NCBI RefSeq assembly: GCF_006345805.1
Contig: NC_043001.1
Span: 97,650,001 to 97,714,000 of the forward strand
Source of the DNA: Octopus sinensis
Lineage: Eukaryota
Direction: 5' to 3'
DNA: 64,000 nucleotides
The position numbers and the translations under genes were made by a program. The notes beneath the pieces are model-generated. The model searched no databases. It saw nothing but the letters and a program-made list of their open reading frames with translations, and had not been told where the DNA came from. Shown in pieces: positions 293-56,316 of the stretch; the stretch's first letter is position 1, and each line of letters opens with the position of its first letter.

Positions 293-3200
293 CGCTCTGG
301 AAACGAAAATCTTTTAAAATAATGAATGGAGAAATGGAATAAATGGAATTAAAAATAATATTCACGTGGCAAAACGAACACCACTCAAAAATTATGAATG
401 AAACAATGTAATAAAACAACCAACAACGAAAATAGACAAATTACCACGAATTCCCTAAAAAAAAACATGATAAACCAAAACTCTTAAAAACATATAACGA
501 TAAAATCTCCCTTTGCTAAACTCTATAACAAACCTATATAGCAATCCCCCTAACCTAAACATTCACACACAAAAAACACACACGTAAACCACAGACCCAC
601 GACTTATACACATACCTATACTAACTTATAAACCTCAATATACACCAAAAACCCACTCCCTCCCCACACAGACAAATTAACACATACATCCAAAACCTAA
701 ATAACAAACCCATATACACATTCACACACAAACACACACACACAACAGATACTTATACTCCCTCACATATACGCATATACATACTCACTAAACTCGATAT
801 ATACAACAATATTTACACACCCACACTCATACAGATAAATAAATTATACAACTAAAAACTCACACACAATCTCATATACATAAACACTCCAATAAAAAAC
901 AACATTAAATACATCGTAATTAACCAGAATATCAAAAATAACAATATGACATAAGGAGAAATAAAATACATACTACAAGTCAGTTTCAAATTATGAAGTG
1001 AAATTAATTCTTAGCCGTTAAAAAAACCAAACCAAAATTACGTTACCATAGAAATATAACTTATGTAAAAAAAGAATACGCGCCATGGAAAGTAAACGTC
1101 ATTTAAAATTATGAATGGAGAAATAGAATAAATGGAACTAAAAACTATATCCACGTGGCAAACCAACACTACTTAAAAAAAATTTATTATGAATGGATTC
1201 TTTAATAAAACTACCATAATAATTATTATATACAATTATGAGCTTTAGCTCATCTTAGCAGCTCTAACAAACAACTTGCAGTAACCCAAATCTATTCTCG
1301 ATACCTGCCTTACTACTACACTATCCCATTCCCAATTCCAAGCAACGCTAGCCCACCATCCGGTTACAATTCCCAACTCCACCCATTTATTCACAATTTC
1401 AACGACGTTCAACTCCACAGCGCTACATATAAGCCTCAACATATACACCGGAGATTCGCTTTCAATCCGTGCGGATGGGTGAGAGTATACATTGAGTGTA
1501 GTGATGGAGCTCCCATTACTATACACATTTGTACCTGTGTGGTAGTCTCCATGTGTATATTCACGCACGAGTATAAATGCAGGGGGTACACGCGCACTGC
1601 ATGCACGTGTACCCCCTCACATGTACATATGCATGCTAGTTGGGCTTGATATGTGCAACAATGTAATCGCGCCCGCATACATGCATATGGGCGAGTTGCA
1701 CAATCAAAATACGCACACGTGTGTGTGTGCGTTCCCTGGTTGTGCAATTCACCCATCTGGGTGTGAATGGGTGTAAGCGTATTGCTGTGGATGTCGAGCT
1801 TGATACGTATGTATATGAGTGTGTATTGGGGGGTTACGGACAAATAAACACATACATCCCCAAAAATGGGCGTAATCACACTCACACCAATCATATGTAT
1901 ACAATTATACACACTAGAATAATACATAACTAACCCAAATATACAGAACATATTAAAAATCACCAACAAACCACCATCACAAATGAAACCTACACCCATA
2001 CAATGACAAAACTCCCCCTCTATACCCAATTACACCCACATAGCAATCCCAATATATTCATCCATACATGGACGCACGTGCGTGAAGCACATGCACACAA
2101 TAAATACGTACAACCCCCCAATACACACTCATATACATACGTATCAAGCTCGACATCCACAGCAATACGCTTACACCCATTCACACCCAGATGGGTGAAT
2201 TGCACAACCAGAGAACGCACACACACACGTGTGCGTATTTTGATTGTGCAACTCGCCCATATGCATGTATGCGGGCGCGATTACATTGTTGCACATATCG
2301 AGCCCAACTAGCATGCATATGTACATGTGAGGGGGTACACGTACATGCCGTGCGCGTGTACCCCCTGCATTTATACCCGTGCGTGAATATACACATGGAG
2401 ACTACCACACAGGTACAAATGTGTATGGTAATGGGAGCCCCATCACTACACTCAATGTATACTCTCACCCATCCGCACGGATTGAAAGCGAATCTCCGGT
2501 GTATATGTTGAGGCTTATATGTAGCGCTGTGGAGTTGAACGTCGTTGAAATTGTGAATGAATGGGTGGAGTTGGGAATTGTAACCGGGTGGTGGGCTAGC
2601 GTTGCTTGGAATTGGGAATGGAATAGTGTAGTAGTAAGGCAGGTATCGAGAATAGATTTGGGTTACTGCAAGTTGTTTGTTAGAGCTGCCAAGATGAGAT
2701 AAAGCTCATAATTGTATATGATAATTTATTATGGTAGTTTTATTAAAGAATCCATTCATAATAAATTTTTTTTAAGTAGTGTTGGTTTGCCACGTGGATA
2801 TAGTTTTTAGTTCCATTTATTCTATTTCTCCATTCATAATTTTAAATGACGTTTACTTTCCATGGCGCGTATTATTTTTTTACATAAGTTATATTTCTAT
2901 GGTAACGTAATTTTGGTTTGGTTTTTTTAACGGCTAAGAATTTAATTTCACTTCATAATTTGAAACTGACTTGTAAGTATGTATTTTATTTCTCCTTATG
3001 TCATATTGTTATTTTTGATATTCTGGTTAATTACGATGTATTTAATGTTGTTTTTTATTGGAGTGTTTATGTATATGAGATTGTGTGTGAGTTTTTAGTT
3101 GTATAATTTATTTATCTGTATGAGTGTGGGTGTGTAAATATTGTTGTATATATCGAGTTTAGTGAGTATGTATATGCGTATATGTGAGGGAGTATAAGTA

Positions 3201-3680
3201 TCTGTTGTGTGTGTGTGTTTTGCGTGTGTGTGTGTTTGTGTGTGAATGTGTATATGGGTTTGTTATTTAGGTTTTGGGATGTATGTGTTAATTTGTCTGT
3301 GTGGGGAGGGAGTGGGTTTTTGGTGTATATTGAGGTTTATAAGTTAGTATAGGTATGTGTATAAGTCGTGGGTCTGTGGTTTACGTGTGTGTTTTTTGTG
3401 TGTGAATGTTTAGGTTAGGGGGGTTGCTATATAGGTATGTTATAGAGTTTAGTAAAGGGAGATTTTATCATTATATGTTTTTATGAGTTTTGGTTTATCA
3501 TGGTAGGTTTGTTAAGGAATTCGTAGTAATTTGTGTCTATTTGCGATGTCTGTTGTTTTATTGCATTGTTTCATTCATAATTTTTAAGTAGTGTTCGTTT
3601 TACCAAGTGAATATAATTTTTAATTCCATTTATTCTATTTCTCCGTTCATAATTTTAAGTGATGTCCGTTTTCTAGAGCG
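293..3680. repeat. Large inverted repeat (foldback): arms ~293-1838 and ~2107-3680, spacer 1839-2106
   Basis: 1784-1838 is the reverse complement of 2107-2163. The mirrored ORF pairs 1245-1568(-)/2379-2702(+) and 1721-1933(+)/2020-2226(-) share near-identical translations. Arms differ by scattered substitutions, more so at the outer ends. Confidence 0.95.
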
Positions 3681-36350: not shown

Positions 36351-36510
36351 ATAGGTAATGTTTATCGTCACATCAGTATAGCTGTTCGGCGTTGCCACTG
36401 TTTAACCCTAGGAGGAGTTAGCTGGTTATCGATGCAATCTCCACCCAGTGCCCAGTATATATTGTAAACAGGGGAGCAAACCGCGACCAGCTTCTAGCAG
36501 ACGGCAGGAT

Positions 36511-36557
36511 CACCAGACTGAACGGTTTCGGACTATTTATGCTCATCTTCAGTGGAG
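36511..36557 (-). ncRNA. Hammerhead ribozyme with intact core and eroded stems, in a pLTR-like element (36352-37182)
   Basis: Minus strand: CTCCA-CTGAAGA-TGAGC(ataaata)GTCC-GAAA-CCGTTCAG-TC-TGGTG. Direct repeats 36352-36400/37133-37182 and 36561-36578/36993-37010. Confidence 0.65.
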
Positions 36558-37329
36558 AAAATCCGGCCGCTAGAAGTAAACTCTTTATTATGATCATTTG
36601 ATCGAATATAGAAAAGAGAGACAAATACAAAAATGTTACATGAGTTCGAATGAGACTTTTAAGAATTTAATTATACTATGAAATAAACGAATAATTGGCT
36701 TACTTTTGCATTTACATAGAGAACTTTAGTGGGTTTTTTTTTTAAATTAAAACTAGAGAATATAACGTTTATAAAGGGTAAAAGAATAGCAGGTTCAAAA
36801 AATTGAACCCGGCAGTCAATAAGGCCCAGCAACTAGTTTCACTTTCTTCGATGATTAAGCTGGGTTACTAACATTCACCTTTCTCATCACATCCTTCCAT
36901 CGTTTTCCCTATTCACTCGGTGGCAGGGTCTTCCTCTCCAATCCCATCTTGCTCTTCAGATGATATCTAAAGTAATCTAGCAAACCGGGGCATCCGGCCG
37001 CTAGAGGTAGTAGGAATTCGCTCCAGCTCGCAATATAGACAAAAGCACGCTACAATCACTCAATGATCTTGGAACAAGCAAACTAGCTAGTTAGAAAACC
37101 TCTATAAGAGATGAAAATAGAAATTATACTGAGAGGTAATGTTTACGTCAAATCAGTATGGCTGTTCGACGTAGCTACCATGTTCATACTCATAACTGGT
37201 ATTCTTTGAAACAGCAAATACTCCGATAGTTAATTCTGGGCGTGTTGTTAGTTGTAGAAATATTTAGGTCTACTTTCATTAAGTAGTAAGAAAGTTAAGA
37301 TGGAAATTACTATTGGACTGAGGTAGGGT

Positions 37330-40710: not shown

Positions 40711-40949
40711 CTCCACTTATAATCTTCCACTGATTATAATCTACTTATAATCTCCTGATTTTGTAATAATCTACATATGATCTGTGAGGTATACTTGCCA
40801 TCTCAATATGGCTAACCACTAAGGGTGGGTGTTACAGTAGCTTGTAGCCCCAGGAGAACACCGTCTCCAGCTGGCTTTAGGCACACTATCTGTGCCCTTG
40901 TGGTATTTGCAAAGGGAGGTCATCCGTCCCTCGTCAACCTAACTGATAC

Positions 40950-40992
40950 GCACGGACTGCAGTTTCTAGGTTTTGACCTGTCATCAGCGTAC
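40950..40992 (-). ncRNA. Minimal type-I hammerhead ribozyme (intact)
   Basis: GTACG-CTGATGA-C-AGGT(caaa)ACCT-A-GAAA-CTGCAG-TC-CGTGC; palindrome ACTGCAGT; GUC triplet. Confidence 0.9.
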
Positions 40993-41241
40993 GACAATCA
41001 CTGGTTTTCGATGAAAGGAGGTTCCAAAGCAAATACTTATATCGTTTTTCCAGTACCTTTTCATCTATCCATATTGAGATGGCAAGTATACCTCACATTG
41101 TCGTGCAGTTACTGTTTATACCTCGTTCAGAGATTTATTATTGCTTGCATACAGTTTTTCAAGATCACTGACCAAAAGTTACTGGAAAAACGATATAAGT
41201 ATTTGCTTGGGACATTCTTTCATCGAAAACCGGTGATTGCC

Positions 41242-41284
41242 GTACGCTGATGACAGGTCAAAACCTAGAAACTGCAATCCGTGC
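41242..41284 (+). ncRNA. Hammerhead ribozyme, second copy (one stem III substitution)
   Basis: Same as 40950-40992 except CTGCAA-TC (G to A breaks the palindrome). Confidence 0.82.
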
Positions 41285-42088
41285 GTATCACTTATGTTGA
41301 CGAGGGAAGGATGACCTCCCTTTGAAAATACCATAAGAGCACAGATAGTGTGCCTAAAGCCAGCTGGAGACGGTGTTTTCCTGAGGCTACAAGCTACAGT
41401 AACACCCACCCTTAGTGGTTAGCCATATTGAGATGGCAAGTATACATCACATCGTCGTGCAGTTACTGTTTATACCTCGTTCAGAGATTTATTATTGCTT
41501 ACATATGATCTGCTCCACGTGTAATCTGTTGATCTGGTACGTAATTACAAAATATTTACTGAAATATAAATATTTAGATCACCAAAGAAAAGAACACTCC
41601 ATATCCTGTACCGATTCATTAAATTCTGAATCCGAAACCTACTTTGTATGGCCTTCTCCCACATTTTTTTAGTATTGATAAATTAAAACTAAAATACTGC
41701 AGTCGGTGTATAATACTAACCGACTTATGCCAATGTTCGTAACTTATGCCGAAGTCAGACACCATTCCGATAACCACTCTGATAATGATAATGTTATTAA
41801 AACTGTATGAATTATCTGTTTTCACACGGTTGGATGCTCAATCCGCAAAGATGTTAGCTCTTGCCTTTCAGTTTTCGCGATCGGAATATAATTACTAGTG
41901 ATATACTGTTGTCGAATTTAAGCGAATTTGTTTGTTTTTTTCTGCTATTTGTTCAAACGTGAGAAGTCGATAAGTTAACATTAATATAATTTTCTATCAC
42001 TGTTAATATGTAATCACTAGTATTATTTTTTATTTAATACCTTCAAAACATACAACTCAATATGCCTTTAGTATGTCCAGATTATGCG

Positions 42089-53981: not shown

Positions 53982-55600
53982 TCTCTTATGATAAAAGGCA
54001 GATTTTCTCTGCCTGTTCCCATGTTTCTTTTTAATACAATTCTGCAATATAAATTTCTTCAATTGGAATTTACCTATGATTTTTCCAAGTAGATTCGATT
54101 GGGTCATGGCATGTAAAGTTTTTTCAATTTTTCACCCTTATTATGTGTGTGTGTGTGTGTGTGTGTGTGTATTAGCAATTCGTATAAAATTGCATCAATG
54201 ACTTGAACTTGAATAAGTGGTTTCACATAAATGGGAATAAATTAAAAAGGTTTGTTATTATTATTCCTGTTTGACTGTTGTAATCACGTTTGTTGGTTCC
54301 TTGTCAGGGAAACGTTGTTGTGTTGCATTTGTTAAATAATTGTAAACCGGAACCATCCCCCTTTCGGAGAAGGGGCTTTGGTTATTGTTTAAAAATTGAA
54401 TCGTGTCCCTGTTTGGGGAAATTGACAATATTTTAACCGTCTTTACGGAACCATTTTTGTTAAAATGCCTTCGATAGAAGAAAGTCCAAAAATGAATTTC
54501 GCTGCAGCCGTACACTTCTATACGAGAGGGTGAACAAGATCCAATTGATCGAAATTGCAAGAGACGGGCCTACAATTCCAGTCTGTTATATATTTTGAGT
54601 ATTGTTATCACTAGCGATATCAAGATATAACTTTGTATTTTGTATTTTATGTGTAGATGTAAGGCCATGTTTCGCAATGTCAATTAACAAAGCGCAGAGT
54701 CAAACACTGTCTGTGGCGGGAATACATTTGGGAGAGCCATTTTTCTCTGATGGTCAGCTTTATGTTGCCTGCTCGCGTGTCGGCCGCAACAGTGTTGCTT
54801 TCGCATTCGTTCCACAACGAAAAACAAAAAACATTGTGTACAAGGGGGTTTTATAGGATTACTATGTTTCATCATTTTCGAACACGTTAATATTTCACTT
54901 ACATACGACTCTCTTTTATGATGACATTACATTTTTAGGCGTTTCATGACATTAATTCACACTTAACCTGTCCTTCGCTCACCTCTGTTTCTATCCATTC
55001 ATCATCAAACCACCAGCCTCATCTTCTATATCCAACGTACATGACACATCTACCCCCTACATCTACACTCTCACTGTTAAAGTTTATATAAGAGACAACA
55101 CGATCGCAACATAAACGTTGGAAACTAAGCAACAGATCATTTTATACAACAACAAATTTAATCATAACACCCATCAATGAAAACATCTCCACCACTGTGT
55201 TGTGATTCATCTATTCAGTACCACTACAGTCTTGCCGGTCTGACATATGGTGAGTAGATGCTATTGTTCTATATTTTATAAATTACCCATATATACTTAC
55301 CCATACTTAATTCCCCTCTTGCCCACATAGGGCATCCATTCTCTTTTGACACAGCATGAAGTTTTGTAACAGCACATCTGCTGCCGTTCATGGAAAACGA
55401 AGAAACCCTATTCACCTGCGAACGTTTTACACCGCCTTCCACGACTATCAAATTCTCACAATTATGAGAACAATAACATGGCTCTTTTCAAGGCAACCTC
55501 GCATTCAATTCTTACACCATTCTACGAGGGGGTAGGAACCCCTTCACACAGCTTTCTATACACTTACAAATACATTCATTCGCCTTGAACTTATATCAAT
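53982..55600 (+). mobile_element. Helitron remnant (right boundary uncertain)
   Basis: 5' TC after (TA)n; contains the Pif1-like helicase C-terminus. Confidence 0.55.
54657..54856 (+). pseudogene. Helitron Pif1-like helicase C-terminal fragment
   Basis: FAMSINKAQSQTL..G..L..PFFSDGQLYVACSRV..TKNIVYKGVL* matches FAMTINKAQGQT/FSHGQLYVA.SRV. Confidence 0.9.
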
Positions 55601-56108
55601 TCTTGGGCTATTGTTAGAAATATTGTAAATAGTCTTTGTCAGGGATTTTTATATTTCAATTGTCATCATCATCATTGTCAGCACCTTAATTATTGTTGCT
55701 AGTGGTGATGGTGGTGGCAATAGAACTTTTAACCCTAAATAAGATAAATTTCCTGCTATCTTCATCTTGATCACCTTTAGTATTGTTGTTGTTGTTAGTG
55801 GTCATGGTCGTAGCAGTATAAGTAGTACCTCTAAGTATTATTATTATTAATGCTTATTTAGCTTTAAATTCGAACCCATTGCTGCCTCGGCCAGGGTTAA
55901 GATACACGACTCTTGACATGTTCAACAAAGCGTGATGCCTAAACCAACCAATCAGCTTAAGTAATTGAGTGATGCTACACACTGATTGGTCAGAATAAAG
56001 TTTGCAAAACCTAGCAATCTGGAGCCCACAGAGCTGTATTTAAGGCACAGATTTAACCATCTCGCTACAGTCAAAAATTGTGAAGTATGACTGTCACCAC
56101 TACTACAC

Positions 56109-56151
56109 GAACCTGAAGATTGCATAATTTAATGCATGAAAGTACTAGTTC
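56109..56151 (+). ncRNA. Minimal type-I hammerhead ribozyme (intact) in a pLTR-like segment ~55870-56205
   Basis: GAAC-CTGAAGA-T-TGCAT(aattta)ATGCA-T-GAAA-GTAC-TA-GTTC; palindrome AGTACT; CUA triplet. Confidence 0.9.
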
Positions 56152-56262
56152 AATCAGAATGAACATTTCTATTATTTTATTATATTCTATTATCTTATAT
56201 ATATCATTATAAGATTGTAAATAAAACGTGAAAATCAGACACGGTTGGAATTCCTTTTATTA

Positions 56263-56316
<54 letters not shown>

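Follow-up and report, generated by a model that had tools for sequence, protein, structure and literature searches.

A decayed 354-nt hammerhead retrozyme in Octopus sinensis: PLE-type insertion anatomy and a family-wide target site for a Tx1-like LINE

Within the stretch of Octopus sinensis DNA analysed here (the window; 64,000 nucleotides, positions 97,650,001 to 97,714,000 of contig NC_043001.1, assembly GCF_006345805.1), the segment 40772..41512 is best explained as a decayed non-LTR retrozyme with a 354-nt unit, which a Neptune-type PLE reverse transcriptase (RT) would have copied in trans from an uncleaved multimeric or circular RNA, and whose family provides a fixed insertion site for a Tx1-like LINE; we put the probability of this reading at about 0.8. 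The element belongs to a family, hundreds strong, of ORF-less 354-nt repeats with a type I hammerhead ribozyme (HHR). This kind of element, the non-LTR retrozyme, and its link to PLEs are already in print. What is new is that a LINE has its target at a ribozyme repeat, a target class that we did not find in print, and that start sites are paired throughout the family. The copy in the window is an ordinary daughter of this known kind of element and is probably dead.

The element is bounded by the direct repeat TACATATGATCTG, which abuts both of its ends (Table 1). A reading made from the letters of the window (the sequence-only reading) had counted all 13 bp of it as TSD; the repeat is there, but the last 2 bp of its left copy also fit the inverted arm, so that the TSD measures 11-13 bp. 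Between the two copies lie, in this order, an inverted arm, a partial forward unit and a full forward unit. The full 354-nt unit, read earlier as ending at 41499, stands with a repeat period of 354, and its numbering, u1-u354, is used throughout. The inverted arm, which matches the forward unit at 93.5% identity across 279 nt, is also real, although it extends beyond the 277 bp (40785-41061) first assigned to it. Likewise, the partial unit exists and is 96% identical, but the ~85 bp given for it before (41067-41151) included 6 nt that belong to the next unit. We agree that the element has no coding capacity: its longest stop-free frame has 144 codons, and a comparison of its frames with PLE proteins gave no match. 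The GC content of the region is 0.38. Of 278 sites compared, 17 differ between the two arms, which is close to the divergence of unrelated loci (6.5%); the arms have two rare letters in common. Elsewhere in the window, 293-1835 and 2112-3680 form an inverted repeat of 1.57 kb that is 95.7% identical and has internal repeats inside.

Table 1. Features of the element and of a second HHR repeat in the window (positions are those of the window).
Feature	Position	Strand	Remark
Left TSD	40772..40784	+	11 bp certain, 2 bp common to the arm
Inverted arm, u306 back to ~u25	40783..41065	-	starts at the inner start site, without the tail
Type I hammerhead, intact core	40944..41000	-	GUC at 40957-40955, palindromic loop 3
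Empty LINE target site (u77-90), inverted arm	40999..41012	-	one mismatch to the common form
5'-truncated partial unit u275-354 (partial tandem)	41066..41145	+	
Full 354-nt unit	41146..41499	+	
Empty LINE target site (u77-90)	41222..41235	+	overlaps the start of HHR stem I
Type I hammerhead, GUC to AUC (41277)	41234..41290	+	likely impaired
48-nt PLE-type tail between the two start sites	41452..41499	+	
Right TSD	41500..41512	+	
Second HHR repeat, LINE-interrupted	36353..37178	-	~349-nt unit, 46-nt terminal repeat, HHR core 36552-36516
Related LINE, 5'-truncated	36561..37005	-	14-bp TSD at 37005-36992 and 36574-36561, ends at HHR stem I

An HHR core is present in each unit, as had been noticed, at 40987-40955 on the minus strand (GUC intact) and at 41247-41279 on the plus strand, but the first reading overlooked that the forward core is mutated: G16.2 is replaced by an A, which breaks the C15.2-G16.2 pair, and 48 of the 49 family loci have a G at this position. 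With its two HHRs on opposite strands and the forward one mutated, the locus is likely unable to release RNA of unit length. An Rfam search of the element reported no hammerhead even at an E value of 10, and only hairpin look-alikes caused by the inversion; single-strand folding of the two HHRs is unremarkable (z of -1.0 and -1.3), and the circular fold of a natural monomer gives a weak signal (z of -2.0 against mononucleotide shuffles). Our HHR call therefore rests on the type I core, which is conserved across the 49 family loci, and on covariation: in a set of 16 hand-picked natural copies from several subfamilies, whose relatedness inflates such counts, 94% of cells were paired and both sides had changed in 10 of 21 pairs, as in 0 of 500 shuffles. 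Some copies have U3-A8 in place of C3-G8, and loop 3 is palindromic throughout; both traits have been described for PLE-linked and metazoan HHRs in the accessible part of PMC4209133.

A search of the 2.72-Gb genome with the unit returned 3411 candidates, of which the best 40 were scored. A 33-nt core word had 28 exact matches and a 23-nt end word 292, while both reversed controls had none, so the family is not a product of chance. Sister families of similar length exist, namely B (97-98% alike and young), C and a distant one, and several of them have the same ORF-less anatomy. The distant HHR repeat family (L331, L367-L396; 2338 candidates, best 40 scored) shows the same two-end anatomy, and one of its copies holds the LINE described below. 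Tandem arrays without an ORF are found at loci L018 (more than five units) and L115. The L018 array (216-2510 of that locus) is the longest; it is bounded by TSDs and both of its ends lie at the inner site described below. Units of 354 nt with low GC and no ORF, present as arrays and as dispersed copies with 11-15-bp TSDs, fit the description of a non-LTR retrozyme, whose repeat unit measures 150-450 bp, carries a type I HHR and occurs both in tandem and as scattered monomers flanked by TSDs longer than 4 bp. Contigs of four runs that we guessed to be RNA cover the unit piecewise, and ends, strand and circles are not readable from them.

The first 100 end-word matches listed (contigs C1-C6) come from 72 loci, and the anatomy of insertion was studied in 62 of these, leaving out seven loci, that of the window among them, and three others. 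The ends of the family cluster at two fixed start sites, 47-48 nt apart, which we classified as inner (u298-310) and tail (u345-354); the flanks are AT-rich or microsatellite targets. At 40 of the 62 loci two arms are inverted relative to each other, with both 3' ends outward. Thirty-two of these pair an inner with a tail end, one has two inner ends, none has two tail ends, and seven have one unclassifiable end. Mixed pairs thus account for 32/33, compared with about half under independent choice (P ~4e-9), and this near-strict pairing implies that the two target strands are primed asymmetrically. A TSD of 11-15 bp flanks about 21 of the 40 two-arm loci, and many of the others lie within (TA)n. 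The arms overlap by at least 3 nt at the junction in 13 of 42 inversions (4.8% expected), several times at internal palindromes, although the three longest overlaps may be inexact; at one 8-bp palindrome, u176-183, seven arms stop and three inversions are joined exactly. Such short microhomology junctions between head-to-head arms resemble those of L1 twin priming. Non-majority letters are shared about five times more often by the opposite arms of one locus than by arms of different loci (1.58 against 0.32 per 100 nt in family A, where the figure is weighted by L018, and 0.73 against 0.13 in family B), so both arms of a locus derive from one source.

A tail, inversion and partial tandems are hallmarks of PLEs according to the accessible text of PMC8557442, and in vitro the tail marks two RT start sites (PMC11167929). 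The earlier view of the element as a non-autonomous HHR repeat with PLE-type integration is thus borne out at family level, by the paired start sites, the inversions, the TSDs and the (TA)n targets. The search for a partner was based on 5029 GIY-YIG candidates, of which the best 150 were scored and 50 loci were read, with two further families added. The genome contains intact ORFs with RT and GIY-YIG domains, some of them 98-99% alike, which carry the extra CxxxCxxC motif described for Neptune/Nematis in the accessible part of PMC8557442, and the PLE ends have tails and (TA)n targets similar to those of the unit. No autonomous PLE with the unit as its pLTR was found among the four families checked: the pLTRs of the 781-aa family (L089 group), the 775-aa family (L095/L097) and the two further families are all unrelated to the unit. 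The likeness of the unit tail to the 781-aa family was matched by 156-389 of 932 control windows and is not significant. Two apparent unit-ORF chimeras were also rejected, since L169 is a nested neighbour and L295 is explained as well by insertion into the (TA)n end of a PLE followed by deletion. Of the genome-wide tandem copies and ORF links that the sequence-only reading had proposed to look for, the former were found, as the arrays L018 and L115, but an RT/GIY-YIG partner was not, in these four families; we infer a mobilising PLE partner.

The 781-codon Neptune-type PLE family (L089 642-5460; L090-L092, L106, L108) is young, with an intact frame and copies 98-99% alike; it has two 3' ends ~40 nt apart and, read by eye, a possible variant hammerhead with a U3-A8 core near its end. 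Two-arm inverted 3' fragments of the 775-aa family, 86-91% identical, lie at 55597-56268 of the window.

The 354-nt repeats are themselves the target of another retrotransposon. At L262 the unit is interrupted by a 5-kb insert, a LINE whose full length is 5.3 kb, with a CCHC knuckle in ORF1, an APE endonuclease, an RT and a C-terminal zinc domain in ORF2, and a 3' end without a poly(A) tail. The closest named relative of its protein is from an argonaut, and no named Tx1 reference was among the homologues listed; we call it Tx1-like on the basis of its domains and target specificity, and not of a tree. A search with the 3' end of the LINE, excluding the unit, returned 552 candidates. Of the best 40, which were scored, 34 continue directly into the unit, four into the target motif and another LINE, one into a later insert and then the unit, and one into a distant HHR repeat with its own TSD. 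The exact end word of the LINE has 41 matches, and the first 30 listed all lie at the target, four of them being new. All 44 ends examined are thus found at one site and on the same strand as the unit, and the accessible part of PMC4494074 sets the threshold for target specificity at more than 20% of copies in one repeat. As a rule the TSD consists of the 14 bp u77-90; it begins 58 nt before the cut site of the HHR and ends at the start of stem I.

Three observations indicate that these insertions are independent and targeted: in nine LINE copies a local, non-canonical variant of the target is present on both sides; the 5'-truncated copies L310, L331, L356 and L360 keep both host halves and a TSD of their own; and at 23 loci the LINE copies are 95-98% alike, whereas their hosts are 67-98% alike. 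We consider it almost certain that this LINE lineage specifically targets HHR retrozymes. In some three LINE insertions, the target copy on the 5' side is nearer to the common form than that on the 3' side, a weak hint that the LINE RNA carries upstream host sequence. Rfam reported no ribozyme at the 5' end of the LINE. The HHR cores beside LINE copies are often mutated, and for this reason nothing shows that the LINE needs the HHR. The same target site also harbours tandemly nested copies of one or more older LINE subfamilies, ~81% identical (L351, L352, L365, L333, L334, L340).

A second HHR repeat, a partial tandem ending in (TA)n, lies ~4 kb from the element (Table 1) and has no detectable likeness to the 354-nt unit. 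It is interrupted by a LINE that is 74% identical to the main LINE subfamily. The 14-bp TSD of this LINE differs in sequence and lies at the equivalent position, 59 nt before the cut site.

As to the RNA that served as template, copying through the cleavage site and over more than one unit length, as claimed before, agrees with the family data. Thirty-nine arms extend as far as u140; in 36 of them copying went past the cleavage site, and three end close to it. Of 99 arms, 13 cross a unit junction into the previous unit. Consequently, the cleaved monomer is not the main template. 5' stops are not in excess at the site (3/39 in u131-140, with ~2 expected from the general stop rate), and no indels were seen there in ~105 segments. 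Whether the template was circular is a nearly balanced matter, as we give a linear RNA, read through from a tandem locus and left uncleaved, slightly less than an even chance. Arms have a median length of 160 nt, and the longest in the 62-locus sample measures 542 nt, so none exceeds ~1.5 units; an uncleaved linear tandem transcript therefore explains such short arms as well as a circle does. The main substrate of the PLE PAc is uncleaved RNA, and HHR cleavage is not needed for PAc insertion in vitro (PMC11167929). The L018 array does not provide clean evidence of rolling-circle copying either, because its forward units are 0-3% apart and yet 3-7% from their own inverted arm; it looks as if it was homogenised after insertion or as if a second template was copied, and later expansion at the DNA level would fit. 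On the other hand, mussel and axolotl have related 350-nt retrozymes that form circles, according to the accessible part of PMC7229834, the HHR is conserved by covariation, and a cycle with linear RNA only would grow shorter in every generation. The homogenised look of L018 might even suggest a satellite-like repeat that spreads as fold-back or rolling-circle DNA with no RNA step. We regard this as very improbable in view of the fixed 3' ends with variable 5' truncation, the TSDs, the paired start sites and the covarying ribozyme.

It is also conceivable, though we think it unlikely, that the copies are 5'-truncated ends of an autonomous PLE, so far unfound, whose 3' end consists of several tandem 354-nt units: arms as short as those observed would rarely reach its ORF, and the 50 PLE loci read stand against 5029 candidates. 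However, what lies upstream of a full unit is the previous unit, and no co-linear RT+GIY-YIG ORF was found upstream at the unit loci examined. PLE protein matches occur in 7 of 188 stored unit loci, some of them overlapping, and the six that were followed up (L125 is the seventh) are neighbours or nested insertions. Moreover, several sister families and both arrays are ORF-less alike, and none of the four PLE families checked ends in the unit, so that, as the earlier reading held, the unit is not simply the truncated end of one of these. Finally, the constant physical association of LINE and unit raises the idea that the LINE mobilises the unit, in a SINE-like manner or by 3' transduction, or that both spread as one composite. 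The identities of LINE and host are weakly correlated (rho 0.18, from non-independent pairs), and at L354 the host halves up- and downstream of the LINE come from different subfamilies, which suggests recombination or 3' transduction. We give this idea hardly any credence, since the ends of the unit are of PLE type, truncated LINEs retain both host halves with their own TSD, near-identical LINEs sit in hosts up to 33% apart, and the TSDs made of local variants weaken it further.

The metazoan non-LTR retrozymes described in the accessible portions of PMC7229834 and bioRxiv 10.64898/2026.07.22.740005 share with our family ORF-less units of ~350 nt, present as monomers to multimers, large TSDs, a type I HHR with a 2-bp stem III and a palindromic loop, and a proposed dependence on PLEs; as far as the latter text goes, its arguments for the PLE link are co-occurrence and pLTR homology, and insertion ends are not among them. 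In contrast, the octopus family consists mostly of two-arm inversions with paired start sites, and no pLTR homologue of its unit was found in four PLE families. With the PLEs PAc/Poseidon (PMC11167929) and Neptune/Naiad (PMC8557442), again going by the accessible text, it has in common a pair of RT start sites separated by a tail, partial tandems, an inverted 5'-truncated copy, AT-rich or (TA)n targets and copying through the HHR; it differs in having no ORF and a tail of 47-48 nt, against 30-40 bp in print. Furthermore, the unit pairs one inner with one tail start almost strictly (32/33), whereas PAc in vitro shows no strand difference.

The LINE resembles Tx1L, Keno, Kibi/Koshi and Tx1-Mar of the Tx1 clade, which, in the accessible text of PMC4494074, have two ORFs, APE and RT domains, a fixed site in a multicopy repeat and nested tandem insertions, their targets including other transposons. 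The targets named for this clade in the accessible parts of PMC4494074 and PMC8869645 are snRNA genes (U2/U5), 5S, microsatellites, satellites and other transposons (DNA transposons and LTR elements), and the former describes none of its targets as an HHR repeat or as derived from a PLE. R2, too, is a LINE within a transcribed repeat, the 28S rDNA, with which it is co-transcribed (PMC4494074, accessible part). It shares with our LINE the orientation of the host repeat and a ribozyme at one end of the RNA; unlike in R2, the ribozyme near our LINE is the hammerhead of the host repeat and lies 3' of the LINE, which may or may not make use of it. No report of a LINE that targets HHR repeats was found in the literature searched, with Repbase entries and most subscription papers lying outside the search, and the accessible main text of the octopus repeat annotation (PMC13282606) does not mention ribozymes or targets.

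Taken together, the life of the unit may be pictured as follows. A tandem locus would be transcribed, and its HHR would probably cut only as a dimer, via the palindromic loop 3. A PLE protein would nick AT-rich DNA on both strands, 11-15 bp apart, and copying would start at the inner site (u306/307) for one end and at the tail end (u350-354) for the other, in keeping with the anatomy. As the arms show, it runs past the cleavage site, in some cases enters the previous unit, and stops at the median length given above. The copies would then join head to head, often at short microhomology, leaving an inverted arm, a partial tandem and a TSD. Independently of this, the LINE inserts in the orientation of the unit at u77-90, with the cut site following 58 nt later, and duplicates the target sequence that it finds there. 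It has no poly(A) tail, and may use the transcription and the ribozyme of the host repeat to define the ends of its RNA.

The anatomy of this family is direct evidence that PLE machinery inserts animal retrozymes, and the pairing of start sites constrains the mechanism of PLE integration, which is unsolved. An insertion of the LINE at the stem-I site would disable rolling of the 354-nt unit. R2 carries an HDV-like ribozyme at its 5' end. It is possible, though we hold it to be doubtful, that our LINE borrows the host hammerhead to cut the 3' end of its own RNA ~58 nt into the target. If so, it would be the mirror image of the 5' ribozyme of R2 and would complete a three-level chain of parasites (PLE, retrozyme, LINE); the LINE would also borrow the transcription of the host repeat, and each LINE subfamily would follow a ribozyme repeat of its own, with the foot of stem I as the constant insertion point. 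The LINE therefore offers a testable case of a retrotransposon that may exploit the ribozyme of another element.
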